Assembly (NCBI GenBank): GCA_964648565.1
Contig: CAZYLG010000001.1
Location: 12,315 to 76,314, forward strand
Direction of reading: 5' to 3'
Origin: an uncultured Thermoplasmatales archaeon
GTDB lineage: Archaea; Thermoplasmatota; E2; DHVEG-1
DNA length: 64,000 nucleotides
Within the stretch, counting starts at the first letter, position 1, and each line of letters opens with the position of its first letter. A program made the translations under genes and the position numbers. Below, in pieces: positions 6,701-56,815 of this stretch. A model generated the notes under the pieces. That model was given only the letters and a program-made list of their open reading frames with translations. It was not told the origin of the DNA and did no database searches.

Positions 6701-9700
6701 CTGGGATAATTGATTGGACAGTTAATAATGAAACATTTGATATTGAAGTAAACGGTGGAACTGTATTTACTGTTACATTCACAACTATTACAAATAGTGT
6801 TTTAGAGGTTGTTACTGTTATAAATGATGAGTTTAACAGCCAAGGACTCTCAGATGTAATTCAAGCATATGATACTGGATCTAATACAATAGAAATTAGA
6901 ACAACTGCTATTGGTTCTAATCAAACATTCACATTAATATCAGGTACTACTAACGATGCTTTAACGATATTAGGGTTAACTCCTGGTACGTATACAGGTA
7001 CAAATGTGATAGGAGGATTAAATCCATATACAAATCAATTTACATTAACTGCTGGTATATATGACATCGATTGGAAACTAAATGCATACGGTAGTAATGA
7101 TTCAAATTCACAACTATATGATGTAACTCATGGTACAGTATTATTGTCTGGATCTTCAGAATTTACAAGTACATCATATCAAGCAAGCGTTAAGACATTC
7201 GGACATGGATCATTTGAATTAACAGAAACTACTACATTGGAATTACAACAAATAGTTCAAAGCAATGCGAACACAGATTCAGTAACTGGTAATTCGACAT
7301 CAAGTTATCCGGGGCTTATCCAACATGAAATATATGGAGATGTTTTAATATCAAAGATAAATTCTTTCAATATTAATAGAGAATTTACTATATCTCAGAA
7401 TAATAATATTAATACTCCACCCATGGTGCATCTTGAAGAACGACAACCAGTCGGAACTGAATCCGGTGATTTTGAATCTGGAGTATGGAGAACAAGAAAA
7501 TTAAATACTGTTGTTACAAATGAATTACCTGGAGATTCTAGCGCCACTCCACCTATACCTCCGGCACAATTTGATGTACTAACACATACTCTTATATTAC
7601 CAGCTGGTGAATATTATGCTGATATATGGGCACCAGTATATATAGTAGATAGTCATGTCGCTCGTCTACAAGATGTATCAAACAATACTACATTATTATG
7701 GGGTACTTCAGAATTTGCTCAAGACAACTATTACGTAAGTAACTACTCACATATTAGTGGAAGATTTATATTATCTGAAGAAACATCATTACAAGTTCAA
7801 CATCAATGTCAAGTAACACGTAATAGTAACGGATTTGGTGTAGCCGCAGGAAGCTCAATATCAGGCCTCGATCATGAAACATATTCTACAGCAAAATTTT
7901 GGCAAGTTACTGCTCAAGAAGTAGTTGGACGAGAACTTACGACGATAGAAGACCATTATCGCCCTCCATTATTTTATATTACTGATCAACGTAACGGGGT
8001 TAATGGTGGTCAGGCTTTATCTGGTTGGACACAAAATATAAGAGAATTAAATGTAATACGTACAAATGAAATTAGTGGAGCATCATTGGATGTGGCAACT
8101 GATACGATTACTCTTCCAGCTGGAAAATATTATATTGAATGGTCATGTCCTGCTTATGATGTCGGGTATCATGTTAGTAGATTACATAATCTTACTGATG
8201 CACAAATTTATATGGGAGAAGTAGCTCACTCAGGTGGCACTCAAACTCGTAGTGAAGGATCAACATCGTTCGAAATAATGCATGAATGTGAATTTCAAAT
8301 TGAACATGGTGTCGAATTGGGTGGATCGAACACTCAAGAATTAGGTTCTACAGCTGGTCATGGATATGGAGATGATGTTTATACTACGATAAGAATATGG
8401 CAAACATATGCAGATACAGTTACTCGGACATTAGATTATACTCATAACGTGAATATGCCTCCATTGTTACACATGGAAAGTAGAATCAACGGAAGTGCTA
8501 CTGAAACGACCCCTTCACCAAATGCTTGGAATATAAGAGAATTAAATACTATTGTTGGTGCAAACGAAATTAGTGGAGCATCATTGGATTCTACTACACA
8601 TGAATTTACATTACCTGCAGGAATGTATATGTTTGATGTTATTGTTCCAGCATATAAAACAAATGGATGGAGATCTCGGCTCTATAATGTAACAGCAGAC
8701 ACCACAGCATTATGGGGCACTACTACATATGCTAATGCTACTGGAAATGTAGAAAATAATTCATTTATAAAAGGGCGCTTAGATCTCACAGAAGAGACGA
8801 CACTACGAATAGAATATTATATTAATAATAATGATTCTAGTGCTGCTGGAAACGGATATAATGAAACAAGTGCGATGGGTGCATCATTCTCAACATATGC
8901 CGTAGCTCTTGTGTATGCTATAGAAGTATATAATATTACAAGAGATTTAACGATAGAACAAAACATCAATATACCACCAGTATTCCACGCACGAGAAACA
9001 TATACAGGTACGAATGATTCATATGATCTAGATAATGCATGGGTAACACGACATATTAATTCAGTAGTAAGAAATGAAATTACCGATGCAGCATTAAATA
9101 CATCTGATTATCAAATTACATTACCTGCTGGGAAGTACATGATTGAATGGAAGACATACATGCTTGGACAGGGATGGGGTAAATCTCGAATTCAAAATAT
9201 AGGAACATCTACTACTATAGCAGAAGGTATAGTAGAATCTGGTGGTTCTGCTTCTACAATGAGTCCATCAAAACAAATTATAGAGTTAACTGAAACTACG
9301 ACATTAGAATTACAAAATTATGTAAGTAGCTCTGCTATTGATTTTAATTCGGATACTCCTCCAGTTCCAGGTCCGTATATTTGGGCAGAATTCTATGCTT
9401 GGCAAATCAATACATTAGAAATAAATACAACAGCAACCTATACATATGAAGCTAATACTGCTCCAACATTAATTGTAGAAGAACGTCAACCAGTCGGAAC
9501 TGAATCTGGTGATTTTACATCAGGAAGTCGACAAAGAAGAGTAATAAATTCAGTTATTATTAACGAAATTACTGGAGCTGAATTAGAATTTGATCAACCA
9601 CAAATCACCTTACCTGCTGGGCAATATGAAATATCATTTGAAGCTCAAGCATATAAAGTAGATAGGCATAAAGCATGGTTACACTCTGTAACAAGTGGTC

Positions 9701-9930
9701 TTGATCATATTGAAGGTTCGACGGAGTATGCAGGGAGCACAATTGATGTAACCACATCATCAAAAGGATTTAATAGAGTTATCTTATCACAAAATGAAAC
9801 ATTAGAATTGCAACACGAGTGTGAGACAACAAAAACAACTAATGGGCTTGGAGTCGTAAGTGGTGGTGTATTCTCAACTGTAAATCATGAATGTTATTCA
9901 AAAATAATTATTAAACGGATAGGAGATTAA
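763..9930 (+). CDS. giant fibre-like structural protein, 3055 aa. It has an N-terminal MSFPSSP..W motif, a short collagen-like G-X-Y segment, about 14 tandem ~170-aa repeats, and one inserted module shared with the 1843-aa protein.
   Basis: AGGAG 6 nt upstream of the ATG. An uninterrupted 9.2-kb ORF. Each repeat carries TWxTRxLNT..NEITGASLD..TLPxGKY.I.W..RLYDVTHN..ELQH..NINRPP.FHxQERQ. Repeat starts near nt 2452, 2957, 3462, 3978, 4508, 5041, 5563, 6093, 6603, 7482, 8020, 8522, 9038 and 9525. The collagen-like run GPPGTPGPQGPQGQPG is at 1399..1446. Confidence 0.85.
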   Translation: MSFPSSPVNGQVYGNYEWDESLGAWRDTGGVDIPGIFYGISTGDRSLAGGALIPFQNVVKESTYLTYDDINNIIEIGRDGWYYITYHMTTYIPSGTGDNNSYAWLEIDSGAGYDEVVGSRGGMYNEDASTGTNSTSVEIYQYLNEGDKVRLFASQDSGSQAVWLLGGSTALLIRTVEGVKGEKGEVPEHEWNGSELRFRSSDGTWGSYTDLSGPPGTPGPQGPQGQPGLAAAWTTGSYSYGALVSHNDLLYISTEADNTDEPGTTDTWKQWNPALEMDEMPLGTILPWHESFEAMKNPPRSIGFNGEYKENALQDNSADFNTDGVMVGDIVVNKTDQIFAKVVAKVPHMITLDYDAFPSGGEEYEVYPQAILHPAFEKCDGQTLNDSTSPFDGRQLPNTNSAREFLRGGNLSGVKESDAFQGHEHQVSFSQSSNTYDYYRVDNTYFVLSNDTDTVGIKDKSGYGTARYDVETRPVNMSVIYIIKVRNIDSIRFATEYKVDGDNFHSFTPITQLRPDMEFPVYDPISSTYQKIRLDNFVISKPYLRIEDNKPFGEHGGAVPTTDTWFTRTLNTVYNNEINNSDLSGSLITLPPGRYYIRWKVPGRAILRFTSRILDITHNKVLASGSNEYAHTGYSHSLWSTGETQIELKEDTQLAVQMIAGTNSGNDDLGISMNGDGLNEIGHETYTTFEAWQLHSISETYSTETVNNVNTAPMFHLREEFEPGTSRNLSQNTWHTRELNTERINEVSGATSDLENHTITLPAGRYYFEFNCYSYATNANVCRLQDVTHNITLIEGFTGYSSTSTDVYIQGSGVVELLTESTLELQHAWDNDGGNNEFGVNTTNTMGQRQIHAELKGWQHNAYEITTTLEQHQNINTPPLFQIEHRTDDEISPTDTTNDHTWLPRSLNTTVINETDAILGDNGEFTLTPGKWYIDWFEVGYRTYRWASIIWDKTHGKMALVGAQGYNHTSYSVMTHSNGSGYIVVNEDTTFQMMHYSETSGDDNRTWGFSDGEPYTPYKIHAQLKAWQVNTYDITINKTITTEHNINRPPTIHIQERQAPGADAGGFLNGNGLWSPRRINSIVINEVTGASFDSVNYQLTVPVGLYDLDWWANAYDVNGHKTRIFDVTHSITIAEGSNEYADTSYQHITRSRGSFTHQFTEETVIELQHAAESESGDNHDQGFQMASRFNPVEYELYAELKLQQVEAFEITRTFNITTENNINRPPKFHIQERQPNDINSYEPAPSTDNTWITRKINTHVLNEITGASLDDVAHQFTLPPGKYDIDWRCSLYNPDYFNSRLYDVTHMNTAIQGYGSHNNDQHTLSEGRQTIELIEETTFELQFIVSDNAESSWIGGHQSGNSHPSILYELYSDIEIFQIEEHNITIDHTITTEHNSNRPPRVHAQEVLPYGTGDRNQGRAGPFDANDTWTRRRINMLRSNEINGVLFSSDTGKFIFPAGRYDVDWYAISYAAYSHTTQLYDSTHNEVLVQGSMGYNHASYPSNTYSVGRGSFELTEETIIEIRHIADSSSTDSHAMGESYPENVISGLEQQIYADVLFQQTEALEIVQEYNITQQHNINFPPTLFMEERQPLGTDAGDITPTWRPRKLNTIIKNEITGASLDTSINSFTLPPGKYFINSIAPARYVDLHRTRLFNETKFIQELISDSVEGDNDQGGVSFAHLSGYIEISEETTFQIQHKSNYQRNGDGMGQSTGIDSTFYDAGYEKYCTTYIQQIEEYTVNREIDFRTEFSLNSPPLFYAEYRVENGQNSEESIPANTWTTRFINTPVTNEITGAELNNNEITLPSGLYWVEWSALAGDVDSHRSRLYDVTHSKTLLYGNSMFAENSYWVQNTSDGQGRIYLDEETMVRIEHIMTHDGSGSRAGYNTNFISSSHETYNWIKIEATEIHEITREYTQSQDNNINRPPILHVQHRMPAGQHGGALGIHNDTWYTRPLNTIVTNEIEEISGTRAKAIGTEDVSGIIDWTVNNETFDIEVNGGTVFTVTFTTITNSVLEVVTVINDEFNSQGLSDVIQAYDTGSNTIEIRTTAIGSNQTFTLISGTTNDALTILGLTPGTYTGTNVIGGLNPYTNQFTLTAGIYDIDWKLNAYGSNDSNSQLYDVTHGTVLLSGSSEFTSTSYQASVKTFGHGSFELTETTTLELQQIVQSNANTDSVTGNSTSSYPGLIQHEIYGDVLISKINSFNINREFTISQNNNINTPPMVHLEERQPVGTESGDFESGVWRTRKLNTVVTNELPGDSSATPPIPPAQFDVLTHTLILPAGEYYADIWAPVYIVDSHVARLQDVSNNTTLLWGTSEFAQDNYYVSNYSHISGRFILSEETSLQVQHQCQVTRNSNGFGVAAGSSISGLDHETYSTAKFWQVTAQEVVGRELTTIEDHYRPPLFYITDQRNGVNGGQALSGWTQNIRELNVIRTNEISGASLDVATDTITLPAGKYYIEWSCPAYDVGYHVSRLHNLTDAQIYMGEVAHSGGTQTRSEGSTSFEIMHECEFQIEHGVELGGSNTQELGSTAGHGYGDDVYTTIRIWQTYADTVTRTLDYTHNVNMPPLLHMESRINGSATETTPSPNAWNIRELNTIVGANEISGASLDSTTHEFTLPAGMYMFDVIVPAYKTNGWRSRLYNVTADTTALWGTTTYANATGNVENNSFIKGRLDLTEETTLRIEYYINNNDSSAAGNGYNETSAMGASFSTYAVALVYAIEVYNITRDLTIEQNINIPPVFHARETYTGTNDSYDLDNAWVTRHINSVVRNEITDAALNTSDYQITLPAGKYMIEWKTYMLGQGWGKSRIQNIGTSTTIAEGIVESGGSASTMSPSKQIIELTETTTLELQNYVSSSAIDFNSDTPPVPGPYIWAEFYAWQINTLEINTTATYTYEANTAPTLIVEERQPVGTESGDFTSGSRQRRVINSVIINEITGAELEFDQPQITLPAGQYEISFEAQAYKVDRHKAWLHSVTSGLDHIEGSTEYAGSTIDVTTSSKGFNRVILSQNETLELQHECETTKTTNGLGVVSGGVFSTVNHECYSKIIIKRIGD
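1399..1446 (+). repeat. collagen-like Gly-X-Y triplet run (GPPGTPGPQGPQGQPG) inside the 3055-aa ORF
   Basis: Read directly from the translation. Loose GxY triplets (GEKGEV) precede it at about 1300..1330. Confidence 0.7.
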
Positions 9931-10825: not shown

Positions 10826-13102
10826 TTATAATTCTTCGAAATATAAAATTAACCCATGTGTTTTATTTTCTATTACTTCGATACCAGACCATTCATCTTG
10901 AGCTAATACTAAAATTTCATTATATTTTGCATTAATTTGAAATTCTACGTTATCAGCTTCAATCGATGCCAATTCTGAATCAGTAATAACGTCTAGAGCA
11001 TTTTGCCGGTATGCATAATAATCTCTTCCTAGATATGTGATTTCAACTAATCGCACTCCAGGATATGACATCATATACGAACTCAATTCTGTTTTAGAAA
11101 TTGATTGCCCAAATGTTTGTTTATTAATGTTATACTGATTTCTTGTATAATTATAAATATTCTCTTTTACAGTGTTCTTCATATTCTTAAATGTATATAC
11201 TGTAGCTACAACATCATATACTCCATATCGAGCGTCTTTAATATGATTATCAACACACAACATTTTTTGATTCTTAATATATTCTAAATACATATTTTCT
11301 TCAGAAGTATTATTCGGATCCCATCCATCAGCATAGTATGTAATGACAGTTTCATCATTTGTAATATTCGAAGTAGATGTAAGAATAATTTTATTAAATT
11401 CCCAATTAATTGTATAATCACTACCTTTTGTATATTTAGTTTGCCCTGTTTTATCATATATTTCAATTGGAAAATTTGGGTATAAACTGTTTAATGAAGT
11501 GTCTAATGTAATCGCATAATCATCAACTGATGAATCATATGCGAATGTGTGAACAACATTTTGTTTATGTTCTTCCCATGTATCATCAAATACATATAAT
11601 ACCCGTAATATTGTTGGTTCTGTTTCAGATGCTGGTGATGGAATTGTACCACCATCAACTGATTGTATTCTTGAAAATGTAGATTCAGATTCATTAATTG
11701 TATAATCTGTATCTTGTATATATGAATCCATGGCTAACCAATCTGTACTTCCAGTATCATAATGAACAACATACATAGTATTACTTTTATTCATTCTATA
11801 TTTTTTTAAATAAATAGTTTGTTTAGATGGATATAATTCTATATCTTCATAATCAACAACATAATGCGGATTATATGTTTTTGATAATCTAAACAAATCA
11901 TTAAATTCTACCGGACTAGTTTCTTCATACCCTTCTCTTAACGGACAAATATAAATCCATGTATCAAGAGGCGGTAAAAAATAACCATATTCTTGAAATA
12001 TAGCTTCTGGCTCATTGTCTTTACTTACAATTGTAGCATGTAATATTGTTGGATTATTTTCTAATTTTATAATATAATCTTCATTTGTAACTGTTTTATT
12101 CGCAGTTCGAAGTTCAAGAGGTGAACGAAATTTTGCAGTTTCTAAATCTTCAGTATCAGATCCTCCTGCTGCTGATTTAGTATTAGTGAATACTAATGTA
12201 ATCCGCTCACCAGCGAGAGTATATGTTTTAGTACTGTTAATTGTATTTGCTGGAATATTCGTATTTGTACCACCACCAACTCTATATGTTACTTGTAATC
12301 GTTCTCCTTTTTTTGGAATTTCAACTAAATTTTCATGTCCATATACGATATCAACAGAATTATCATTATTAACTTCAACACGATATGGTATTGTTTTTAA
12401 TGATTCATCAACTTCATTCTGTTGGGCTTCAGGAGAAATAAATGAATCTACTTCAAGGTGTTCTTTTCCAGTAGTTAATGATGTTATTCGTATAGAACTA
12501 TCAATAATTGGATTCTGTGTAAGAGTAAACCGTTCATTATTAATACCATCTGACCATATATCATCTTCAGTGACTGTTACACCCTGATAAAACGGAACAC
12601 CACTAATATTATAAATTTTATTTGTTTCATCACCACTCTCCACATGATAAACAAAACTATAATTTGGTTTACCGTCATCTGCCATTTCTATACACTCAAA
12701 TGTTGTTATAATACCATTTTTATCAGGTACATCTAGAGTTTCTAATGGATTGAGATTAAAAGGCGGAGTCCATTTTGCTAATTTTAAATTAACACTAACT
12801 CTCGCAGCTGATGGTAGTGGTGGTTTATAATTGATTAGTTTTAATATATTAATTACACTTTCTCTTTTAGTAGCTGTGGAAATAAACATTTCTCTAGCAT
12901 ACCAATCAGTTTTTGCGGCTACTTTTTCTGCGATGTAAGCACTTAACTCCAACAACATCCTTCCAGCATTCGTTTCAAGAAAATCATTCCAATTTTCTAA
13001 ATATTCTGGGTGTTCGGTAATTGAATTTTCTACATCTGTTATAATTGTATTAAAATCTAGTTCTGTATAACTAAATTTAGGTAGCTTTACTAAATTATCC
13101 AT
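10826..13102 (-). CDS. baseplate wedge protein, T4 gp6 / Baseplate_J-like, 758 aa
   Basis: The N-terminal region (NWNDFLETNAGRMLLELSAYIAEK...FISTATKRESV...YKPPLPSAA) follows the pattern of the T4 gp6 N-terminus (W..EFLD..GSRLNVLCDLLAY...ESF..A..R.SV..GY.P.S..A). It lies in the same orientation as the gp25 homologue, separated from it only by the 533-aa endonuclease-like gene. Confidence 0.65.
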   Translation of the reverse strand: MDNLVKLPKFSYTELDFNTIITDVENSITEHPEYLENWNDFLETNAGRMLLELSAYIAEKVAAKTDWYAREMFISTATKRESVINILKLINYKPPLPSAARVSVNLKLAKWTPPFNLNPLETLDVPDKNGIITTFECIEMADDGKPNYSFVYHVESGDETNKIYNISGVPFYQGVTVTEDDIWSDGINNERFTLTQNPIIDSSIRITSLTTGKEHLEVDSFISPEAQQNEVDESLKTIPYRVEVNNDNSVDIVYGHENLVEIPKKGERLQVTYRVGGGTNTNIPANTINSTKTYTLAGERITLVFTNTKSAAGGSDTEDLETAKFRSPLELRTANKTVTNEDYIIKLENNPTILHATIVSKDNEPEAIFQEYGYFLPPLDTWIYICPLREGYEETSPVEFNDLFRLSKTYNPHYVVDYEDIELYPSKQTIYLKKYRMNKSNTMYVVHYDTGSTDWLAMDSYIQDTDYTINESESTFSRIQSVDGGTIPSPASETEPTILRVLYVFDDTWEEHKQNVVHTFAYDSSVDDYAITLDTSLNSLYPNFPIEIYDKTGQTKYTKGSDYTINWEFNKIILTSTSNITNDETVITYYADGWDPNNTSEENMYLEYIKNQKMLCVDNHIKDARYGVYDVVATVYTFKNMKNTVKENIYNYTRNQYNINKQTFGQSISKTELSSYMMSYPGVRLVEITYLGRDYYAYRQNALDVITDSELASIEADNVEFQINAKYNEILVLAQDEWSGIEVIENKTHGLILYFEEL

Positions 13103-14696
13103 TATTGTTTTCCTTTATAAATTTTATATTACCACAATCATATATTCTATACCATCCAACTTCATCCATCATTTGTTTCTCAGTTTTTTCATCAGAATAA
13201 TTATCAAAATTTTTAAGTCTTTGTTTTCTAAAATTATATCTATGGTAAAGTTTCTTTCCATTCCAATAAAAATAGTTTGGGGGTGTATGAGAATCCAATT
13301 CAAAACCCAACTGTTTGTATAAATTACCTTGACTCCACCTTCTATCAGCATAACTATAAATTTCGTTCCATTCCCAATTACGTTCAAAATGTTTAAGCAT
13401 TTTAGAAGCCAAACCTGGGGTATATGTATCTGCGGTAGTAGCAAATCTGCTCAATTCCCATACTTCATTTTTTTTCTTTTGGTTCATAAAAATTCTAGGC
13501 TTAGAGAAAGTCATAACGCCAATAAGTTTATTATCATAGAAAGCCCCTAATTTTATTCTACTTTTATCTTCTCCTTGTATGTGATATTTATTAAGAAAAC
13601 CATTTTTTATTTTTGAATCAATTTCTTTGACTATAGTTTGTCTTGCTCCAATTCTCTGAGAATTGAGACCTAAAATATTCTTTAATCTATTTTTTACAAT
13701 ATGAAACTTATCATTTATTTCATTTTCAAAAATATGAATAAGTTTTATACCTTTGTTATTACATTCCTCTGTTTTTTCTAAATGATAGTTTTTATCTTTA
13801 TATATATCAGAGTGCCAATAAAGACCATCTATTTCTATAGCTAAATTATGATCTGGAAGATAAATGTCTAATTCTTTAGGTGAAATTATTTTTCTATCAT
13901 TTTCTTTAAAAATAACACTATTTTCATTTAAAAATTCTTTAATTAATTTTTCTGTTTTAAACTTTTCACTTTTATTACAATTAGAACAAAATAATCTTTT
14001 ACCTCTTTCTAAATTTGAATAAAATACTTTCTTACATTTTTCACATTTCCATTTATATTCTTTTTTTATATTTAAATATTCATTTTCATCAAATAGAGGT
14101 ATAATATGTAAACCTAATAAATTATTGTAATAATTTGTTTTTTTAATCTTTACATTATTAGATACAACTTTTTTTTGATTCCATGGAGATTTCATTCCAT
14201 ATTTTTTTAAATTAGTTTCTTGTCTTTTAATAGTGGTTTCTTTTAATTTTGATATGTTATTTACTCCATATTTTTTAATCATACCACTTTCTCTTTTATT
14301 TTTATCTCTAAGAATATAATCAACTCCGTATTTTTTTAAATTTGTAGCTTTCGTTTTATTTTTTACATCTTTTCTTTGAGCAATATTTTCGACACCATAC
14401 TTTTGCAAATTTATTTTCTTCATTTTATCTTGAAATTCTGGATCACTTGTTTGACACCTAGCTGAGCAATATTTTCTATATCCTCTTGTAAAACCTACAA
14501 ATGAAACTTTTTTACCACAAACACATTTAGGTTTTTCTGTAATATTATTTAAAAAACAATACAAATTTTCACTTCTATTATTTGATATAAACAATTTATA
14601 ATTTTCTTCAAAAAAATCATTTGCCCTTCTAATAGTACCATTATTAGGACTATCAGTTAAAATATTTTTTAATTCAGCTTTAATTTCACTTATCAT
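13095..14696 (-). CDS. multi-domain endonuclease-like protein, 533 aa. Two zinc-ribbon motifs, an array of four (N/I)LKKYGV repeats, a Vsr/DUF559-like PD-(D/E)XK nuclease core (AIEIDGLYWHS) and a C-terminal domain of unknown function. Likely a free-standing homing endonuclease.
   Basis: Zinc ribbons CVCGKK..YCSARC and CEKCKK..FCSNCN. The KYG(V/M) motif repeats four times about 22 aa apart. IEIDG..H resembles the DUF559/Vsr endonuclease motif. The SD is weak. The gene is inserted between the gp25 and gp6 homologues. Confidence 0.55.
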   Translation of the reverse strand: MISEIKAELKNILTDSPNNGTIRRANDFFEENYKLFISNNRSENLYCFLNNITEKPKCVCGKKVSFVGFTRGYRKYCSARCQTSDPEFQDKMKKINLQKYGVENIAQRKDVKNKTKATNLKKYGVDYILRDKNKRESGMIKKYGVNNISKLKETTIKRQETNLKKYGMKSPWNQKKVVSNNVKIKKTNYYNNLLGLHIIPLFDENEYLNIKKEYKWKCEKCKKVFYSNLERGKRLFCSNCNKSEKFKTEKLIKEFLNENSVIFKENDRKIISPKELDIYLPDHNLAIEIDGLYWHSDIYKDKNYHLEKTEECNNKGIKLIHIFENEINDKFHIVKNRLKNILGLNSQRIGARQTIVKEIDSKIKNGFLNKYHIQGEDKSRIKLGAFYDNKLIGVMTFSKPRIFMNQKKKNEVWELSRFATTADTYTPGLASKMLKHFERNWEWNEIYSYADRRWSQGNLYKQLGFELDSHTPPNYFYWNGKKLYHRYNFRKQRLKNFDNYSDEKTEKQMMDEVGWYRIYDCGNIKFIKENNNG

Positions 14697-14702
14697 AATA
14701 TA

Positions 14703-15065
14703 CTATTCTTGTTTTAATACATTAAATTCTAAAAATCTTTCATCATCAGGTGTTTCTTCTTTTAATTTAAATCCTATAACAACTTTTACTTTATTTTCAT
14801 CAGCTAAATTTTCTATATTTAAATCTAATATATCGACTCTTGGTTCATATAATTCAATTTGTTCGACAATTCTATCTTTTAAGAATCCTACAGTTTCATC
14901 ATCTCCTGGCTCAAATAACATAGAATTAATACTAACTCCAAAATAAGGATTCTTCAATCGCTCATTTTCATTCGTATTAAATAAGCGGCTTATTGATTCA
15001 GAAATTAAATCATGATCTTCTTTTATAATAAAAAAATCATGTCCGTACATTGCTATACCGCGCAT
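14703..15065 (-). CDS. baseplate wedge subunit gp25-like (GPW/gp25 lysozyme-like family), 120 aa
   Basis: NPYFGVSINSMLFEPGDDETVGFLKDRIVEQIELYEPRVDILDLNI aligns with T4 gp25 SRPFDPEFGCDLSDQLFENMTPLTADTVERNIESAVRNYEPRIDKLAVNV. GGAGG lies 8 nt upstream of the ATG. Confidence 0.85.
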   Translation of the reverse strand: MRGIAMYGHDFFIIKEDHDLISESISRLFNTNENERLKNPYFGVSINSMLFEPGDDETVGFLKDRIVEQIELYEPRVDILDLNIENLADENKVKVVIGFKLKEETPDDERFLEFNVLKQE

Positions 15066-15078
15066 TACTAATCCTCCT

Positions 15079-15095
15079 GAATTTATAGTTATCTT
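15079..15095 (-). promoter_or_regulatory. promoter-like motif AAGATAACTATAAATTC (minus strand) directly upstream of the gp25 SD; contains a T4-late-like TATAAAT
   Basis: Reverse complement of the + strand gaatttatagttatctt. A variant of the + strand motif TAAGATAATATAAA[TC] found at 15276, 16947 and 49224. Confidence 0.45.
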
Positions 15096-15129
15096 TTCAT
15101 AAATTCGAATTTATTTACAATTTTTCTTA

Positions 15130-15218
15130 GTGTTCACCAGCTGAACTCAATTTTTGGCTGTTCGTGTGCTGAACCCCACTGTTCGCCAGCTGAACCCTGC
15201 TGTTCGTCTGGTGGAACC
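15130..15218. repeat. array of four GC-rich palindromic repeats (consensus CTGTTCG-N5-CTGAACC, i.e. GTTC-N7-GAAC around a central CAGCTG), phased 21 bp apart in a divergent intergenic region
   Basis: R1 15130..15146 gtgttcaccagctgaac. R2 15158..15175 ctgttcgtgtgctgaacc. R3 15179..15196 ctgttcgccagctgaacc. R4 15200..15218 ctgttcgtctggtggaacc, which has an N8 spacer. GTTC starts fall at 15132, 15160, 15181 and 15202. This is a conspicuous GC island in AT-rich DNA. Confidence 0.8.
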
Positions 15219-15275
15219 TATATAGATATAATATATAGATATATAATAAAAATATACTACTACAGGCGGTGGATG

Positions 15276-15290
15276 TAAGATAATATAAAC
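15276..15290 (+). promoter_or_regulatory. conserved motif TAAGATAATATAAAC, promoter-like and T4-late-like, 8 nt upstream of the SD of the YegP-like gene
   Basis: One of three exact copies of TAAGATAATATAAA in the window. Confidence 0.5.
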
Positions 15291-15308
15291 TATAGTATAG
15301 GAGGTAAT

Positions 15309-15650
15309 ATGGGTAAATTTGAATTATATAAAGATAAATCTGGTGAATGGAGATTTCGTCTTAAAGCTGGCAACGGTGAAATAATAGCGGATTCTGAATC
15401 ATATAAAACAGAAGTAAACTGTTTAAATGGTGTTGCTTCACTCAAGAAAAATGTTTCAGAAACTAGTGCGTTTGAACAATTTCAAGATAAAGCTGATAAA
15501 TGGAGATTTAATATAAAAGCTAAAAATGGTGAGATTATAGCTAAATCAGAGGCATATGAATCAAAAGCAATGTGTGAGCATGGTATTGAATCTGTTAAAG
15601 AAAATGCAGTAAATTCCAGAATAATTTCAGAAGGTAGATTAATAAGTTAG
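15309..15650 (+). CDS. YegP-like (DUF1508/UPF0339) tandem-domain protein, 113 aa
   Basis: Two ~50-aa repeats: KDKSGEWRFRLKAGNGEIIADSESYKTEVNCLNGVASLKKN and DKADKWRFNIKAKNGEIIAKSEAYESKAMCEHGIESVKEN. This is the diagnostic YegP architecture. AGGAGG lies 4 nt upstream of the ATG. Confidence 0.8.
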   Translation: MGKFELYKDKSGEWRFRLKAGNGEIIADSESYKTEVNCLNGVASLKKNVSETSAFEQFQDKADKWRFNIKAKNGEIIAKSEAYESKAMCEHGIESVKENAVNSRIISEGRLIS

Positions 15651-15659
15651 AGGTTATTT

Positions 15660-15956
15660 ATGAGAGGAGACTCCACTCGTTATGCTAAAAAAAATATAAA
15701 CAACAATACTAATATGGATGATAAACGTCGATTAAAAAAACCCAAAGTATCGACGATACAAAAAAAGTATTATACATCACCAAAAACTAATACTTCTCAT
15801 TCTTCATCTACGTACGATGACTTAGAAAAATATATTAATAAAGTTACTGAAAAGACTATGAAAGAATTACGAAAAGGTTGGAAGAAATCGTACTCAGAAA
15901 AGTTTCAAAATACATATCCACAACTTAGTAAAAAAAATATCAATCTTAAGATATGA
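15660..15956 (+). CDS. small basic protein, 98 aa, Lys/Arg-rich; possible nucleic-acid-binding protein
   Basis: ORF with an AGAGG-like SD. Composition only, no motif. Confidence 0.4.
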   Translation: MRGDSTRYAKKNINNNTNMDDKRRLKKPKVSTIQKKYYTSPKTNTSHSSSTYDDLEKYINKVTEKTMKELRKGWKKSYSEKFQNTYPQLSKKNINLKI

Positions 15957-15959
15957 AAT

Positions 15960-16550
15960 ATGGAAACAAATACCCATTATGCGTTAAAATTTAAAGCTCT
16001 TCAATGGCTCTATCAAGCTTGTTCTTGTAGATATATAGCATTAGAACTTCAATTTGGTAAGTATATTTTTGATGTAATTGGTTCTGACGGAAAAAATGTC
16101 TATATTATAGAAGCCAAACAATCCAAATCTGATTTTCTAAAAGACTGCAATGACCCAGATGTAATAAAAGCTAATATCGTTTCATATAAAAATCTGTTGA
16201 TAGAAACAGGAGATAAAGAATATAAAAAATTTATAGAACATGAAAGAAGTAAAAGTACTAAATTTTATGATAAAGGATTTTTAAAATTTAGTAATGAACG
16301 ATACATTATAGCACCAGATTCAGTTATTTCTGAAGATATTATCCCAGATAATTGGGGATTATTGAATGAAGAACCAAGAAAAATAAAAAAAAGTGAAATA
16401 ACACAAATTGATGTAAAATATACTAATAAAATAATTAAAGAGATAGCGAAAAAAAATACTAAAATGTATATGAAACATATAGGAGTAGATTTCGATACTA
16501 AATATCCAGTGTTTCCGTCTTGGGAGCATTATATAAAGGAGGATAGATGA
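15960..16550 (+). CDS. PD-(D/E)XK-fold nuclease-like protein, 196 aa
   Basis: FDVIGSDGKNVYIIEAKQSK gives a D..(E)xK catalytic-core pattern typical of restriction-endonuclease-like or resolvase folds. Confidence 0.45.
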   Translation: METNTHYALKFKALQWLYQACSCRYIALELQFGKYIFDVIGSDGKNVYIIEAKQSKSDFLKDCNDPDVIKANIVSYKNLLIETGDKEYKKFIEHERSKSTKFYDKGFLKFSNERYIIAPDSVISEDIIPDNWGLLNEEPRKIKKSEITQIDVKYTNKIIKEIAKKNTKMYMKHIGVDFDTKYPVFPSWEHYIKEDR

Positions 16551-16906
16551 TACGTTATATATGGCAAATCCCACAACATTTACTTGCTTTGCTTATAATA
16601 AAGATAAGCAAGGCCAATTTTAAAAAACAGTATAATCATACAAAAGTATATGTCACTGATAGAAGATTTGGTATTTCTTTAGGTAATTATATTATAGTTT
16701 ACAGGTATTCAGATAAACAATTGATGAAGCATGAATATGGACATTCTATTCAATCACTTTATTTTGGACCATTATATTTAATTATTATAGGATTACCTTC
16801 TATTATTATGAATATTTTAACACGATTAAGAATTTTAAAATTGTACAACTATTATAAAAGATGGCCAGAAAATTGGGCTGATACATTAGGTAATGTAGAT
16901 CGTTAA
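16547..16906 (+). CDS. small membrane protein with an HExxH motif (HEYGH), 119 aa; possible membrane zinc metallopeptidase-like protein
   Basis: Its ATG overlaps the upstream stop. There are two hydrophobic helices after the HEYGHSIQS motif. Confidence 0.4.
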   Translation: MIRYIWQIPQHLLALLIIKISKANFKKQYNHTKVYVTDRRFGISLGNYIIVYRYSDKQLMKHEYGHSIQSLYFGPLYLIIIGLPSIIMNILTRLRILKLYNYYKRWPENWADTLGNVDR

Positions 16907-16946
16907 AAATAAAAATTAAATTTTATAAAGAAAAATAATCTCTTAT

Positions 16947-16961
16947 TTAAGATAATATAAA
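16947..16961 (+). promoter_or_regulatory. conserved motif TAAGATAATATAAAT (contains TATAAAT), 5 nt upstream of an AAGAGG SD
   Basis: Second exact copy of the 14-mer. Confidence 0.5.
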
Positions 16962-16981
16962 TTAAGTAAGAGGTATTTTTT

Positions 16982-17410
16982 TTGAAATTTAACGAAACAC
17001 TCTCAGAATCGTTTAAAAAATATAACCTACGCTACAAAGGCACACAACCAGATTATAAAATACATGATAAAAATCCTTTTGTGCTTGCTATAGATGATAA
17101 ATACAATCCAGATGACCAAGGTAAATCAATTCTTGGTATTAATCTTAATTATTATACTGGTAATAAAAATAAATTGATTAAAAAGATAAATAAAAATGAT
17201 AATGAAGCTGGATTTAGAGGATTTGAAGGTAAATTAAAGGTTCGTAAATTTATTAATAAAGACATCGAAGAATATGAGGAAACACAGAGAAAAAAACGAT
17301 ACGATAATTTTATTAAAACTTTTCCTCATTTAGAAAAATATATACGACGATATAAATATGATGGTCCTAAAGGAACTGGTATTAAATCTAAGAAAAGAAA
17401 GATATTATGA
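16982..17410 (+). CDS. hypothetical protein, 142 aa, probable TTG start
   Basis: The first in-frame start codon after AAGAGG (16967..16972) is TTG at 16982. The product is lysine-rich. Confidence 0.45.
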   Translation: MKFNETLSESFKKYNLRYKGTQPDYKIHDKNPFVLAIDDKYNPDDQGKSILGINLNYYTGNKNKLIKKINKNDNEAGFRGFEGKLKVRKFINKDIEEYEETQRKKRYDNFIKTFPHLEKYIRRYKYDGPKGTGIKSKKRKIL

Positions 17411-17685
17411 TTAAATTAAGTAAAATAACATTTCCTACATATGTATACAGGTTCTATAAAAATAAACCAGGTGAAATATATAGAATATATAAAGGAAATG
17501 TGAATAATGGAATTCAATATAATATAAAAATTTTTACAAGTTATTGGTCTGATTCGGCACGATTTAAAAAAAATGAAGGGACAATAAAGTACAATACATT
17601 TTCACATTTTAATCATATTAATAAGATATCCATGCGTTATAAACAAAACTTAATTAGAGGTATACTTGAAAATGAGGTTTCATGA
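17407..17685 (+). CDS. hypothetical protein, 92 aa
   Basis: ATGA overlap with the upstream gene. Confidence 0.45.
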   Translation: MIKLSKITFPTYVYRFYKNKPGEIYRIYKGNVNNGIQYNIKIFTSYWSDSARFKKNEGTIKYNTFSHFNHINKISMRYKQNLIRGILENEVS

Positions 17686-18004
17686 TTTAGTAGAAGTACA
17701 ACAAAGTACAGTTCAAATATTAAACAAAATAGAAGATTATTTCAGTAAAGAAGGTCAGTTTAGGGAAATATATCCTGAGATATGGAAAAAGATTCATCAT
17801 GTGCGAAGAGAAAACTACATCTATAATAGAGGTAATAAACAATTATATGCTGTATTAGTCGTTCTACAAGATGATTTATATAATAAAGATGAGGAGAAAG
17901 TTGAGGAAACAATAAAAGATTTAGAAATTATTAAAGATAATAATGCAAGAGTAGAAAGAAATAATTTATTAATAAAAATATTAGTACCGGAGGAAACAGA
18001 GTAA
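17666..18004 (+). CDS. hypothetical protein, 112 aa; start is either TTG at 17666 or ATG at 17672
   Basis: AGAGG at 17655..17659. The gene ends 2 nt before the giant ORF. Confidence 0.45.
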   Translation: MKMRFHDLVEVQQSTVQILNKIEDYFSKEGQFREIYPEIWKKIHHVRRENYIYNRGNKQLYAVLVVLQDDLYNKDEEKVEETIKDLEIIKDNNARVERNNLLIKILVPEETE

Positions 18005-18005
18005 T

Positions 18006-21000
18006 ATGTCAATTACTAAAAAATGGTCAACTGGGCCATTAGGAAATGAATATCCAGATCATAGTGAAAGAGGAAACCCTAATACTCGTGGTTTGACTGA
18101 TAATGGTATACCAGGGGTTGAAGGTTATGTTGAAGAAGATCGTGTTGTTGCTTCAGAAGATAATCGACCATTAAAAAATTTAACTCAGAATGATCAAATA
18201 TTAGAAAACAATCTCGTTGATGTAGCATCAGAAGTTGATTATGGAGTATTAAAAGACAAATACGATGAATTTGATTTAGAAATTCAGGAATTAGATTATC
18301 ATCAAGATCCGGAGTCTGATAATCCAGATGACGTTGTTGAAATTACTCCATTACGAATTAAATCTGGTTCCTCATTTATTGATGGACAAGTAACTCGTAC
18401 CGGAAACCAACAGATTATTTATTTCTTACGTGATGACGAGTCATATTTATTTCCAGATTATGATGAACATCAAGGTGAAGTGGTTATCGAGTTGTTTGAT
18501 AAAGATTACTTCGGAGAATACAGACCTGTTTACAATACATTAGCAGAAGAGTTACCTTCGAACTTCACAGATTACGAGATTAAAATAACAAATACTGATT
18601 CTTCTGGATCATTAGAAGATAGAACATCATATTATAAAGTATATCGAGATTGGGAAGATATTGTTCCATATCCACCAGAAGAAGAATCACAATCACAGGT
18701 TCTCGATTTTGAATATGATGCGAATTATGGACAGGATTCAGAAGGTGTATGGCTCAATCCAGAGAATGATGTAATTAATATAAAAGTAAGTGACGTTGAA
18801 GTTAAAAAAAATATTCAAGTATTAGATAAACATCTTCGTCATAACGATTTTAAGTTAAATCCTTCTACTGGTAATTATGAACAAATTCTTATCACTGATG
18901 GTATTTTCTTTGACAACATTCGATGGGATACTTCAGGTGAAGTTGTTGATATACAAGATTTAGTAGTAGATAAAGATGATAATATATTTTTTATTTATGA
19001 TCCTTATAAATTAAATTTAGGTGAAATTGATACACTTTTATTATATAAATTATCTGCTGAATCAGAGCAAATAGATAATATAGAAATTACGAATATTCTT
19101 CCTACAGAAAAACCGATGCGATTAAAATTAATTGATGGTTATTTATTTGTTTTAGGTGAAGGTGCTTTAATCAAATTCTTAGATATTTATGTAAGTTCTA
19201 CTGTTAATGAATTTATTACACCACTTACTGGAGATACAACTCAAACGTTTAAAGATGTTGTAATATGGGATGATACATTGTGGATAGCATCGAATAACAC
19301 ACTATATTATACATCATGGGAAGATTTTAAAACTTCTCCACGACATGCCACTTTTACGACAATTGATTTTGCTTCGGAAATTGAATCTCAAGGTCATGCT
19401 GATACATTAGATTATATTCAAAATATATTTACTCTTAAAGGAAATTATGTTGTTGATTCATCATTAATTCATGATATTGACAATATAATAGATAATCCAT
19501 CATTTGAAGAAGGTGGGATTAATAATCCTCCTACTTCATGGGATGTAACATCAAGTTCTGGAAGTGCTACGTTAAAAGTAGCTAGTGGTAATGCACAAAT
19601 TGGTCAAATGCGAGCTGTACTTCAACCAGCTATTAATGATAATGAAATATCAGTATACCAAGATAAAAAATTCGATTTTGAAACAAGTCAAGATTATACA
19701 TTCTCTATTTATTTAAAAGCATCTACGGATACTGATGTAGATATAATACTATCAGAGTTAGATGACTCTGATGCTATAGTTGATTCTACCACTCAATCAG
19801 AAACCGTAACGGGAAATGATACATGGATTCGATTTTCAGTAACTCATACAGTAACTGATTCAACGAGTGTAAAATTACGAGTAGAAGTGAAGAAAACAGA
19901 TGTTAACGTTCTTCAATTTGACGGTGGGCAATTAGAACTTGGGGCGTCTGTCTCACAATTTGTTCATGGGTATAATTATCTGTTTATTACATTTAGAAAA
20001 AAAGATGATACAACAAATCCACCATTCGCTATTATTGATGAACGAAAAAAATATGATATCCAGTATACTCCTAATTTATATGGGAAAATTCAATCTATTA
20101 ATGATATATTAGATAGAAATCATAATGAAATTTATTTTATTGATGATAGCCATATTTATTCTATGCAACTATTAAATGATGTCGATCATTATGATAGAAT
20201 TAATATAAGTAATCTTTCATCACAATTATTTGGAGATGATTTCAGAGAGAGAGTCAAACAATTATATTCCATCGAAGAATTAAACAGTAGAATTTATATT
20301 GGTGGCACAATATTAAACAAAAATATATCATTTACTATTGATGATGGTGAGACACATACTGTAGAATTATTACATGCAAATGAAGTAACTGGTGGTGGAA
20401 GTTATTTAGATTTTCTTACAATTATTGGCGATTATAATTTTATTCAGGCAAGTGAAAATTCACCAGCAAGAGTAGAGTTTTCAAGAACAGAAGAATTGTA
20501 TGAATCACAAAATCCTACTCCGACAGAAGGATTTTATAGTGCTGAACAAATATATGCATTTGGTATACGAATTGATGACATTGAATATTTAATAAAAGTT
20601 GATTCAGCTCCCCAAGAATTTAATAGTCCATGGTCAATAGAGGACGTATACAATAAAATAGTAACACATACGACATCAGAAGGTTATGATGTATTTAGTT
20701 GGCATTTTGATAATTCTACATTGATTGTTGATGGTTTATATAGTATTGGTATGAATAAACCCACACGATATCTTCGTGGTAACATTAAAAAGATTTTCAA
20801 ACAAGAAAATGCTGAAGAAAAGGATGTTAATGAAAGACATTTATATATAGCTCGTGAAAATACAATTATTCGTTCGAAATATGATCCTAATATTAAAAAA
20901 GTAGGTGATAGTTATCCATCCGAACCAGTAGTACGAGGGTATGTAGATTCGATGGATGATTTACCATCTGATCCAGATAATAATGATGTATATTATGTTG

Positions 21001-24000
21001 AAGGATGGGGATACTTTAAATGGATAGAAAGTACAAGTGAATGGATTGATACTCACTATTTTCATAGATGGGATATATCAGATTCTAATTATGAATTAAG
21101 AGAATTCACAAAAATAGCAAATGAAACTATTACATTTAATGATACTACCCATAATAGATTATTTGTTGATATTCCAGTATCATCAGGATGTGAATTATTA
21201 ACAGGTAGTGTACGATTAAAAATAAATGATGAAACTGAATATGGATTTATAGAAGGCAAGGATTACTTTATAAACTATGAAAACAAAACAGTTATCCGAA
21301 ATGACGGTAAGAATTTACTATCTGATTCTAAATTAGAACATATCGATGACCCTTCAACACAATGGAATATATGGTCGACCCATGATGATCCAGAATTTAA
21401 TTCACTAACAAATGAATTTAATGAAATTTTTGCTGAATTCTATACGGTTAATCAAATAACAGAGTATGTCAACTTCCATCAAGTAGTCGTACCAAATACT
21501 CTTTCTGTCGGCGAAACATTCACGTTTTCAATATATGTAAAATCTAATATAGAATTTACTAGTGGTAATATCAGGTTAGCTGAACGTATTAATTCCGGAA
21601 CAAATAAAAATGATTTATCATTATTTTATGATGATTTTATTGATGGATCGACACAGACATTTTTCATTTCAAATTCAGAATTAGATATTGGTAAATGGCA
21701 TAGAATAGAGGTTACCCATACTATTCAAAATACAGAATCAGATTGTTTACGAGTAGAATTTTATTCTGCACTTAATCATCAAATATTTGTAAAAAATGCT
21801 CAATTAGAAGAAAATCCGTTTGCTACTCCGTATGTGCCTGAGGAAGGGTTTTCAAGAATTGATCCGCAAGATACTGTATATTGTGATTTTATAGAATATA
21901 AAGTATTAACAGAAGGATCAGATTATACATTTAATACTGATGATAATCGAAGAATTTGTTTATTGAATCCAATTGGAAGTAATTCAGAATTATATTTTGA
22001 TTATGAATATGAAAGAATATTTAACCCGTATAAATATGGTAATTCTCTTCCAACATTTGATGTACGATATGATAACCGTGATGATTATTTTCTTTATGAG
22101 AATAGTGGTCGTATTTGGGCGATTAACCAAATATTAGCACTTTTATCATTAGATGAAAGCTTGAATGTTTCATATAAATATCATTATCCTCGAATCGATA
22201 AAATAAAAATTAGAAATATACCTGATAAATATGGAAATTTCTTATATATTGTAAAAGGTGATTTTGATGTTGAAAATCCGTATAGTCCTGGTGATCTAGG
22301 AAATCAACGACAGGTATACGTAGATGGAGTGTATGATGTATCTATTGATGATGTTAACAATGAAGATAATGATGTATTATATGAATTAAATGTTGTGGAT
22401 TTAAATTTTAATAAAAATGATATTTATGATAGAAGAATTTTTATTGATTCTGATACGAGTCCATATTTCAGTATTTCTTTACAGAATGAAACATTAGCAT
22501 ATTTCCCATTCGTTAAAGATTTTATTTCTACAAATGGTATTCATCCATTAAATCAAATTGATGCTTCTCGTATCGTTTCAATTGTTAAAAATTATAGTAT
22601 TCAACAGAACGAAGAAGTTGGAGCATGGGGAACTGATTATCAAATGTCGTTGCGATATAAAGATGGATACCCCGAAAATATTGGTCCTTCTCTTTCTACA
22701 TTTGTTGATAATGATAATGGTAAAGATGATGATCCAGCATATGATGGTACTTCTCAACTCCTTGCATTTAAAACAATCGGAAGAGCTGTAGAAGCTATTC
22801 GAGATGAAGGAGCTCAACCAAATATAGTTATTATTTCTACTTCTACTATTACTGAAGATGTGGAAATTGATTTAACTCAAGAAATTTTAATTAAAGCTAA
22901 AACGTATACCCGTTGGAGAGGCAATTTACAAAATAGAAGTAAAATCACGTTTCAGGGTATCATATTTGAAAATTTCAACTTTTATGCGATAGCAGATTTA
23001 GATTTTTATCATTGTAATTTAGAAGATTCTTCAATTAATAATTATTATCCTCTTAATATTTCGTTATATAATTGTAAAATTTTAGATGCTACAAATACAT
23101 TTTTACGAATAAGTTCACAATTATTTCCAACTCCATTTGCACACCCATATATGAGAAATATTACAAGAGATGATGGTGTCCCTGGAAGTCCAGAATCTGT
23201 AGCGACATCTGACGGTGAGGCAATACATCCAGAGGATTTACAATATAATTTTGAATTGTTTGGTGATCCTATTGGAAATTATACAATGTATCGATGTCTC
23301 ATGAATGGTTTATCAGATGATTTAATCCATTATGATTTAACAAATACACAAGATTGGATTAGCAATTTTGATGTAGAAAAATGTACTATTGTTAACAGTA
23401 AACTTCTCTTTAAAACATCAAAACCAGGTCAATCAATTCTTTTCAATGAATGTATTGTATGGAATAACGGAGAAATACGAAGTGGAGAGAAAAAATATTT
23501 TGATTCACGATCTAACATTGAATTTTTAAATTCATTTATTGATTTTTCAGTCGATCCAGAATTAGTACCAGCTAGTGAACTGAATTTTAATCCAATTGGA
23601 GGTATTTTTGGAAGAGAAACTTGTCAATTTTCAGGACCCAATAAAGATCCTGGATTTATTAGTACTGATGAAGAAACAGAAGATTATCATCTTCGTTCAA
23701 TAGCAAAAGGATTTTTAACAGATTCTGTATGTATTGGAAAAGCATCAGACGGGAAAGATATTGGATGCTATGATGAAATTCGGGAACGAGTTGATTTAGA
23801 CGTACCTAAAAAATTTAAATCTAATTTTGCTTATATAGCAGAATCAATTCATTATCCAATAGTTGTTAATTCAGAAAAAATTACATTCACTGTTGAATTT
23901 AAGCCTACTGAAACATACAACAATACAGGAATTTTATTTGATACTCGATCGGATACTGATGATGATGATTATATTGTATTATTATACAACAATAATACTG

Positions 24001-56453: not shown

Positions 56454-56815
56454 ATGTTCAAATAATGCAATAATGTTTTTGCTTTTAAAGTAGCATAATC
56501 AGGGTATTGTTTCACATATTCACGCGCATCGAGAAAATAAAGAGCTGCTGAACTTTTAGATTTAATGTAAATCATACTCCACCAAAATCTTTCTTCATCA
56601 GACATCTCGGAATTAAATGATAAAAGTACACTTCCATTTTCACATGGAAAATCAAGTGATCCCCCAATAAAGTAACCACCAGCTTTATCGAAAAAAATGT
56701 CTTTTAATACATCTTTATGCTCACCATTGCTACGTGTCTGCATATCATAAGTATGTGTATCTTGCGCGACAGGGGTTTCATCTTTCTGAACAAAAATTTT
56801 CTTCAACAAATTCAA
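56450..56815 (-). CDS. hypothetical protein, 121 aa. The start is uncertain: the track start overlaps the CCA gene stop by 38 nt, and an internal Met at residue 25 (about 56743) would remove the overlap.
   Basis: Its stop overlaps the stop of the convergent + gene by sharing TTAA. Confidence 0.35.
   Translation of the reverse strand: MNLLKKIFVQKDETPVAQDTHTYDMQTRSNGEHKDVLKDIFFDKAGGYFIGGSLDFPCENGSVLLSFNSEMSDEERFWWSMIYIKSKSSAALYFLDAREYVKQYPDYATLKAKTLLHYLNI

Follow-up and report, generated by a model that had tools for sequence, protein, structure and literature searches.

A conserved array of phased palindromic sites as a candidate iteron-type replication origin in an uncultured myovirus-like phage

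In the record of phage lambda, four dyad iterons of 18 bp lie inside gene O at spacings of 20, 24, and 23 bp and are followed by an A-rich stretch. In the record of phage P4 (NC_001609), TGTTCACC is annotated as "ori type 1 repeat," and the alpha primase-helicase reportedly binds these type 1 repeats through its C-terminal domain. A third element, T4 oriE, is said to be an iteron-bearing origin located in the baseplate gene region and dependent on the small RepEA and RepEB. Here, we analyzed an array of palindromic sites at positions 15130–15218 of a 64,000-nt stretch of DNA (the window, by which we mean the whole stretch analyzed: positions 12,315–76,314 of contig CAZYLG010000001.1, assembly GCA_964648565.1, deposited under an uncultured Thermoplasmatales archaeon). 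The window represents an uncultured myovirus-like phage, has a GC content of 31.4%, and contains very large open reading frames (ORFs) of 3055, 3615, 1843, and 1692 aa. The reading that we favor, with about even confidence, is that the array is an iteron-type replication origin that has the anatomy of lambda ori and is placed in a promoter region.

The array occupies a spacer of 243 bp (15066–15308) between a gp25-like baseplate wedge gene and a DUF1508/YegP-like gene. The initial annotation had described four tandem near-palindromes in this spacer, and four units were confirmed, each of 19 nt and of the form CTGTTCG-N5-CTGAACC, which share one 21-nt register and are not assigned to a strand. 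Their starts at 15130, 15158, 15179, and 15200 give start-to-start distances of 28, 21, and 21 bp, so that the 21-bp phase claimed earlier is exact for units 2–4 and not for the first interval. Site 1 (GTGTTCACCAGCTGAACTC, 15130–15148) contains the P4 type 1 iteron octamer TGTTCACC, of which it is the sole copy in the window, and is followed by site 2 (CTGTTCGTGTGCTGAACCC, 15158–15176), site 3 (CTGTTCGCCAGCTGAACCC, 15179–15197, 21 bp past site 2), and site 4 (CTGTTCGTCTGGTGGAACC, 15200–15218, 21 bp past site 3), the last with a degenerate right half and a spacer that is one base longer. The half-site arrangement GTTC-N7-GAAC described previously fits three units, the fourth being GTTC-N8-GAAC, and the CAGCTG center fits units 1 and 3 but not the others. 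What was borne out is the general anatomy, that is, tandem dyad sites suited to a protein that binds DNA as a dimer, about two helical turns apart and flanked by divergent promoter-like motifs.

The array can be regarded as real because the counts of both its 18-mer consensus and GTTC-N7-GAAC exceed expectation in the window. When up to three mismatches were allowed, the 18-mer CTGTTCGNNNGCTGAACC matched at these four places alone (0.34 expected; 0 of 100 shuffles), and GTTC-N7-GAAC occurs four times (0.53 expected), three times in the array and once at 12112. Such a cluster is the single one in 64 kb. The isolated GTTC-N7-GAAC (GTTCAAGAGGTGAAC, 12112–12126) lies within the coding sequence of a gp6-like protein and is probably a chance occurrence; a comparable lone site is found within an endonuclease gene in the related contigs L004/L005.

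The half-site of the array is that of the P4 "ori type 1 repeat," being identical to (C)TGTTCACC, and the octamer itself is present in site 1. In P4, the 9-mer CTGTTCACC has eight copies, all inside ori and crr, compared with 0.07 expected. The half-sites of the related contig L004 are the same 9-mer, and its sites hold both CTGTTCACC and GGTGAACAG. A homolog of P4 alpha was sought by phmmer with the full-length protein and with its C-terminal 140 aa, and none was found in the window, in its relatives, or in the unrelated array loci described below. Literature searches on TGTTCACC and iterons returned primers and unrelated papers only.

Three sequence collections were also scanned with a pattern of two adjacent sites, and the figures that follow for unrelated contigs apply among the matches listed. 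Viral and metagenome contigs with GC contents of 25–70% were found to carry three to six tandem TGTTCA-N5-TGAAC sites, and most of the viral contigs have the array within an ORF. Among 26 such array-bearing ORFs, HTH_36 was identified in 11, DnaD_N in five, and DnaB_2 in two, and seven of 10 array ORFs matched PHROG families of replication initiation proteins or of O-like or DnaD-like helicase loaders. The array ORF of contig L092 has homologs among the annotated replication initiation proteins of phages of Staphylococcus and Lactobacillus and of Stx phages; in L122, a DnaB helicase gene follows the array ORF, and in L109 the array adjoins an IstB/DnaC-like gene. Examples of arrays inside O-like/DnaD-like initiator genes include L120 (6398–6500), L109 (6718–6870), L139 (6420–6520), L112 (13271–13400), and L092 (7045–7125). 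Two further features of these unrelated arrays were outside the search pattern: a spacing that is most often 21 bp (32 of about 90 spacings among the matches listed, where the pattern allowed 17–27 bp) and an A+T-rich flank on one side, more than 10 points above the locus mean (20 of 28 arrays among the matches listed). Because motif, phasing, and flank agree, the array of the window joins a class of elements that, in other phages, are origins embedded in initiator genes, and TGTTCA-N5-TGAACA arrays at 21–23 bp may represent a general, unannotated class of origin. When one of the unrelated arrays was compared with phage records by BLAST, no match was obtained.

Conservation in related phages had been set beforehand as a check on the array, and this check was passed strongly, since the module recurs in both closer and more distant relatives. 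The contigs of relatives were reached via homologs of the neighboring gp6-like protein, to which the percent identities of these relatives refer. Seven relatives at 42–63% identity, some of them on contigs of 224–481 kb, have the module. At 61–63% identity, the module is present in L004/L005, L002, L003 (partial), L086, and L452, which share the spacer between gp25 and the small gene; at 45–50% identity, it is present in L087, L535 (a 481-kb contig), and L536 (a 224-kb contig). Its order runs from the array through AT-rich tandem 11–13-mers and TACTACTAC, or a TACTAT-type variant of it, to a promoter or Shine–Dalgarno sequence (SD). The relatives carry three to six units at 20–28 bp, and their palindromic motif, CTGTTCAC-N3-GTGAACAG, is cleaner than that of the window (site examples from L004 are CTGTTCACCAGATGAACAG, CTGTTCACCACGTGAACAG, and CTGTTCACGTGGTGAACAG); as in the window, the last site is the most degenerate in L086, L002, and L452. 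In L087, L535, and L536, three to five sites at 20–21 bp are followed by an AT-rich stretch, gp25 is located elsewhere, and the array lies in co-directional spacers. One array was counted in each clade fragment that covers the syntenic place, as well as one in the 64-kb window.

Across the clade, the half-sites are kept and the N3–N5 centers and the linkers vary freely, and changes in the half-sites are uncompensated, such as TGTTCAC paired with GTGAATA in L086, L002, and L003. Because of these three properties, the pattern of variation is the one that marks double-stranded DNA bound by a dimeric protein and not a hairpin. A blastn search of phage records revealed no close relatives, and the highest identity reached there with the gp6-like protein in tblastn was 27%. 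In IMG/VR, one relative was identified (L006, 48% identity), the locus of which stops short of the operon; a scan of IMG/VR for the array together with TACTACTAC gave chance hits only, and an exact 28-mer scan gave none.

Abutting site 4 is an A+T block of 38 nt (15219–15256, no strand assigned) with three G/C positions and two copies of TATATAGATATAA, which we consider a candidate DNA-unwinding element. Its position is kept in relatives, where it is taken by tandem AT-rich 11–13-mers such as ACAGATAGAAT and ATAAAGATAGT. The block is succeeded by TACTACTAC on the plus strand (15255–15263) and then by a G-rich stretch (15264–15276), and this motif is a conserved edge of the module. Its distance to the start of the last site is 54–61 nt in the window, L086, L087, L452, and L004, whereas that from TACTACTAC to the AAGATAA of the promoter-like motif varies from 12 to 37 nt. 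Since the former distance is fixed and the latter variable, the array and the A+T block constitute a single unit, which can be separated from the promoter.

Two promoter-like motifs flank this unit. On the minus strand, AAGATAACTATAAAT (15081–15095) faces gp25, which has an SD (AGGAGG, 15073–15078) and a start codon at 15065–15063; on the plus strand, AAGATAATATAAA (15277–15289) faces the DUF1508 gene, which has an SD (GGAGG, 15300–15304) and its ATG at 15309. The initial annotation had the array bracketed on both strands by AAGATAA-TATAAAT, which is accurate for AAGATAACTATAAAT on the minus side but not for the plus side, where the sequence is AAGATAATATAAAC, with TATAAAC instead of TATAAAT. 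A block overlapping the gp25-side motif (TTATCTTTTCAYAAATTCGAATTTATTTA, 15089–15117) is nearly invariant in L002, L003, and L086. The 13-mer AAGATAATATAAA has exactly three copies in the window (15277, 16949, and 49225), and AAGATAA generally recurs just 5′ of ORF starts. Because all three copies of the 13-mer directly precede ORF starts, a promoter-like role is supported, and we infer that AAGATAA/AAGATAATATAAA is a promoter motif of the phage. T4-type late promoters carry TATAAATA at −10, which is read by a gp55/gp33-type system; the corresponding sequences here are CTATAAAT on the gp25 side and TATAAAC on the DUF1508 side, and the recurrent motif is AAGATAA(N0-1)TATAAA. Motifs of this kind were also observed 5′ of ORF starts at 23, 40870, and 54927 of the window and at about 6600 in L002 and 7625 in L004. 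In several cases (49225, 54927, L002, and gp25 of L004), the ATG follows the motif by 0–6 nt, and this close distance suggests leaderless transcripts from a phage-specific promoter.

The initial annotation had mentioned a cluster of replication-origin iterons as an alternative reading, and this alternative is now favored by the P4 ori type 1 half-site and by the arrays in unrelated initiator genes. As in lambda ori, at least three tandem repeats of 17–22 bp roughly in helical phase are present (here four units), and their motif is common to a defined origin (the P4 repeat) and to gene-embedded ones (the initiator-gene arrays); the occurrence of a single array per fragment and the location of the sites outside both promoter-like motifs were likewise counted for an origin. 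We infer protein binding, unwinding, and initiation at the locus. Dimers of a winged-helix initiator would bind the three to six dyad-symmetric sites, for which the clade consensus is CTGTTCAC-N3-GTGAACAG, and the spacing of about 21 bp, equal to two helical turns, would place these dimers on the same side of the double helix. The nucleoprotein complex thus formed would distort and open the adjacent A+T block (15219–15256), at which a helicase would then be loaded. Transcription from the flanking promoter-like motifs may aid this opening, and the bound initiator may in turn affect those promoters.

Several observations weigh against an origin. Searches of the 64-kb window and of about 150 kb from the loci of relatives with Pfam, PHROGs, and phmmer/hmmsearch, among them local ones that used the initiators of the unrelated arrays and P4 alpha, detected no initiator and no HTH_36, DnaD-like, or P4-alpha-like protein, whereas in lambda-type origins the cognate initiator gene often overlaps or adjoins the repeats; unlike in the comparison cases, the array is neither inside nor beside a replication gene. 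GC skew tracks the transcribed strand in all six gene blocks and was rejected as an origin marker for this reason. A+T composition alone is weak evidence because 16 stretches of comparable A+T richness exist in the 31% GC window, and in L535 and L536 the A+T stretch is about 30–45 nt long and must also house the ribosome site and any promoter. The window sites are degenerate (position 7 is G and the 3′ end is CC), and the P4 iterons are mostly direct repeats 10–11 bp apart, in contrast to the 19-bp palindromes at 21 bp described here. The link to the origins of other phages comes from a motif-driven search, which supplies examples and neither a census nor frequencies. In addition, the array always heads the same small-gene operon, 45–110 nt upstream of the first gene, a position that fits a transcriptional control site too.

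Two proteins were considered as the binder and rejected. In L087, L535, and L536, the array is not followed by DUF1508, neither DUF1508 nor gp25 occurs in the unrelated array loci, and a DNA-binding role for DUF1508 was not found in the literature. The product of g5, the fifth gene of the operon downstream of the array, has a confident AlphaFold2 model that contains no helix-turn-helix (HTH) and has no fold match in the PDB.

The constant position at the head of the operon is also the first argument for a different reading, in which the array is an operator or upstream activating array: a dimeric regulator of the phage would bind the palindromes cooperatively and switch the right-hand operon (DUF1508, g3, g5, g7, and the giant ORF) and, in the subclade of the window, the divergent gp25 promoter as well. 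Models for such an arrangement are lambda OR and the p4 region of phi29, which lies between early and late promoters. Although less likely than an origin, this is the main rival reading and a serious one. Tandem dyad sites at 20–24 bp are the anatomy of lambda-type operators, the array of the window subclade lies between two divergent promoter-like motifs, and in several relatives an TATAAATA-like sequence directly follows the last site. The initial annotation had likewise proposed a cooperative operator of divergent late promoters, a reading that is partly supported, in its anatomy, but is not the best supported one. The sites of lambda OR overlap or abut the −35 and −10 elements, but those at 15130–15218 overlap neither of the AAGATAA/TATAAA motifs of the putative promoters (15081–15095 and 15277–15289), the distances to these motifs being about 35 nt for site 1 and about 58 nt for site 4. 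Neither the other copies of the promoter motif (16949 and 49225) nor any other place in the 64 kb has a site, so that further sites at the promoters of a regulon, as expected of a lambda-OR-type system, are lacking within the window. The flanking genes are gp25 and DUF1508, and no HTH gene is adjacent or among the neighboring ten genes according to Pfam and PHROGs; HTH, ParB, and initiator domains were likewise absent from the window proteins scanned against these databases. The gp25 neighbor is not conserved in L087, L535, and L536, and because the array of these distant relatives lies in a spacer that lacks gp25 and is flanked by genes of one direction, its conserved role is not to control a divergent gp25 promoter. 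Furthermore, the same arrays in other phages lie inside initiator coding sequences, where promoter operators are impossible. The origin and operator readings are nevertheless compatible and not exclusive, because initiators often autoregulate.

A wider proposal would join these readings. P4 alpha, the O-like/DnaD-like initiators of many unrelated phages, and the huge-phage clade might have one recognition code in common (a TGTTCAC half-site in dyad pairs 21 bp apart), and in this clade the array might have been uncoupled from its initiator gene, become fixed in front of the operon that leads into the giant ORFs, and turned into a combined origin and promoter switch, coupling the start of replication to the expression of that operon. 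As a whole, we regard this proposal as speculative and unlikely.

A centromere-like partition site (parS/parC-type, with a ParB- or ParR-like binder) in a phage that persists as a plasmid is very improbable. Arrays of short phased repeats that precede an operon characterize type Ib and type II centromeres, and the half-site TGTTCAC-/-GTGAACA may resemble Bacillus parS (TGTTNCACGTGAAACA), but the length of the half-site and the central spacing are unlike parS, searches of the operon, the whole window, and the loci of the relatives identified no ParA, ParM, ParB, or ParR-like domain, and the unrelated arrays accompany initiator genes and not partition genes.

Fainter still is the likelihood of a packaging (pac/cos) recognition site or physical genome end, which the initial annotation had listed as an alternative and for which no support was obtained. 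Three short-read Logan contigs do end inside the array or the AT element (L001 1–94, L003 1–104, and L452 1–217), but the window, L002, L004, L005, L086, L087, L535, and L536 read straight through, and the neighbors are baseplate and small genes with no terminase gene nearby. Strain variation within the array explains the contig breaks equally well, and no exact repeat of at least 31 nt is present; we tentatively attribute the breaks to strain-level variation of the array.

There is similarly next to no probability that the palindromes function as hairpins, whether in RNA or as single-stranded promoters of the kind used by the N4 virion RNA polymerase. A site of the relatives could fold into a stem of 8 bp closed by a loop of 3 nt, and the region, when folded as DNA, gives a weak fold (z = −2.6), but the stems in the window are only 4–5 bp and, as described above, half-site changes in L086, L002, and L003 are uncompensated. 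The promoter-like motifs point outward, which places the array in neither leader, Rfam gave no match, and the giant ORFs show no RNA-polymerase signal; terminator-like sites were not found either. Host LexA boxes (GAAC-N4-GTTC in Gram-positives, GTTC-N7-GTTC in alphaproteobacteria, and TGTTC-N4-GAACA in Verrucomicrobia) were rejected on account of mismatched orientation or spacing and of the three to six tandem copies, which are not SOS-box-like.

The gene to the left of the spacer (14703–15065, minus strand) encodes the gp25-like baseplate wedge protein (Pfam PF04965, E = 2.5e-14; PHROG 261), and that to the right (15309–15650, plus strand) encodes a two-domain DUF1508/YegP-like protein (E = 1.5e-40). 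The latter opens the plus-strand operon that is headed by the array (15309–18004), which consists of DUF1508 (15309–15650), g2 (from 15660), g3 (from 15960), g4, g5 (from 16982), g6, and g7 (from 17666) and is followed by the 3615-aa ORF. The product of g3 falls in a PHROG annotated as "DNA repair protein" and appears nuclease-like by eye. Homologs of g3, g5, and g7 are present downstream of the array in L086, L002, L004, and L087, those of g3 and g5 in L536, and that of g3 in L535. The gene g5 (16982–17410, plus strand) encodes a clade-restricted protein of 142 aa with 31 homologs at 51–69% identity, a conservation higher than that of the baseplate protein and the highest in the operon; its AlphaFold2 model (predicted local distance difference test score 87.5, predicted template modeling score 0.79) combines an alpha/beta fold with a basic C-terminus. 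The gene that immediately follows the array has been exchanged among relatives, and the remaining operon is conserved: this first gene is DUF1508 in the window subclade (15309–15650), a gene for 68–77 aa with an FGxxL...QL..AL motif in L087 (13432–13665) and L536 (17790–17996), and an unrelated gene for 153 aa in L535 (18243–18704).

The four giant ORFs of 1692–3615 aa are located at 763–9930, 18006–28853, 30793–36324, and 49239–54317. The first matched tail-fiber PHROGs and contains 12 repeated stretches, and the 3615-aa ORF belongs to no family, its only match being a weak one to reovirus sigma-1; comparison of the giant ORF and g3 with PDB sequences gave no useful match. Between the gp6-like and gp25 genes, a minus-strand gene (13095–14696) encodes a 533-aa homing endonuclease (DUF7487 + Mom-like + Vsr; PHROG 3339, E = 1e-127). 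This slot is also filled in L535 (8373–10001), a relative at 50% identity, and is empty in L002, L003, L004, and L086, which have related endonucleases elsewhere. Auxiliary genes identified with Pfam at 39878–63831 encode DnaJ with its C-terminal domain, DHH/DHHA1, HD, and radical SAM/SPASM proteins, and three WG_beta_rep proteins, and a tRNA nucleotidyltransferase of the CCA-adding/poly(A) polymerase type is encoded at 56778–58115.

Replication origins are essentially unmapped in uncultured huge phages, whose genomes measure 200–700 kb, and for this clade of huge phages the array is the first candidate origin to be defined by sequence. A conserved candidate of this kind can be targeted in marker-frequency analyses of metagenomes, used as a probe to pull down the initiator, and taken as a basis for building replicons. 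If a census confirms the pattern, TGTTCA-N5-TGAACA at 21-bp spacing could serve as a rule for annotating phage origins.

Among described systems, lambda OR/OL and the phi29 p4 region also have several phased dyad sites between divergently transcribed genes, but theirs overlap core promoters beside regulator genes, whereas the sites described here lie outside the promoter-like motifs with no adjacent regulator, and only part of the clade has the divergent arrangement. T4 oriE is comparable as an origin-type element of short repeats among myovirus baseplate genes (T4-like gp6 and gp25) and beside small early-type genes, although its repeats are other sequences and not these palindromes. With P4 ori, the locus has in common, in addition to the half-site, an AT-rich stretch, which in P4 lies between iteron groups. 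The iterons of lambda differ in sequence (ATCCCTCAAAACGAGGGA) and lie inside gene O, whereas the array of the window is intergenic, in a promoter region, and its initiator gene was not found in the 64 kb or in the relatives' loci. In anatomy, lambda ori is nevertheless alike: three to six dyad repeats of 18–19 bp stand about 20–24 bp apart with an A+T-rich stretch immediately after them, and in uncultured phages arrays of the window motif sit within O-like/DnaD-like initiator genes, as the lambda iterons do within gene O.

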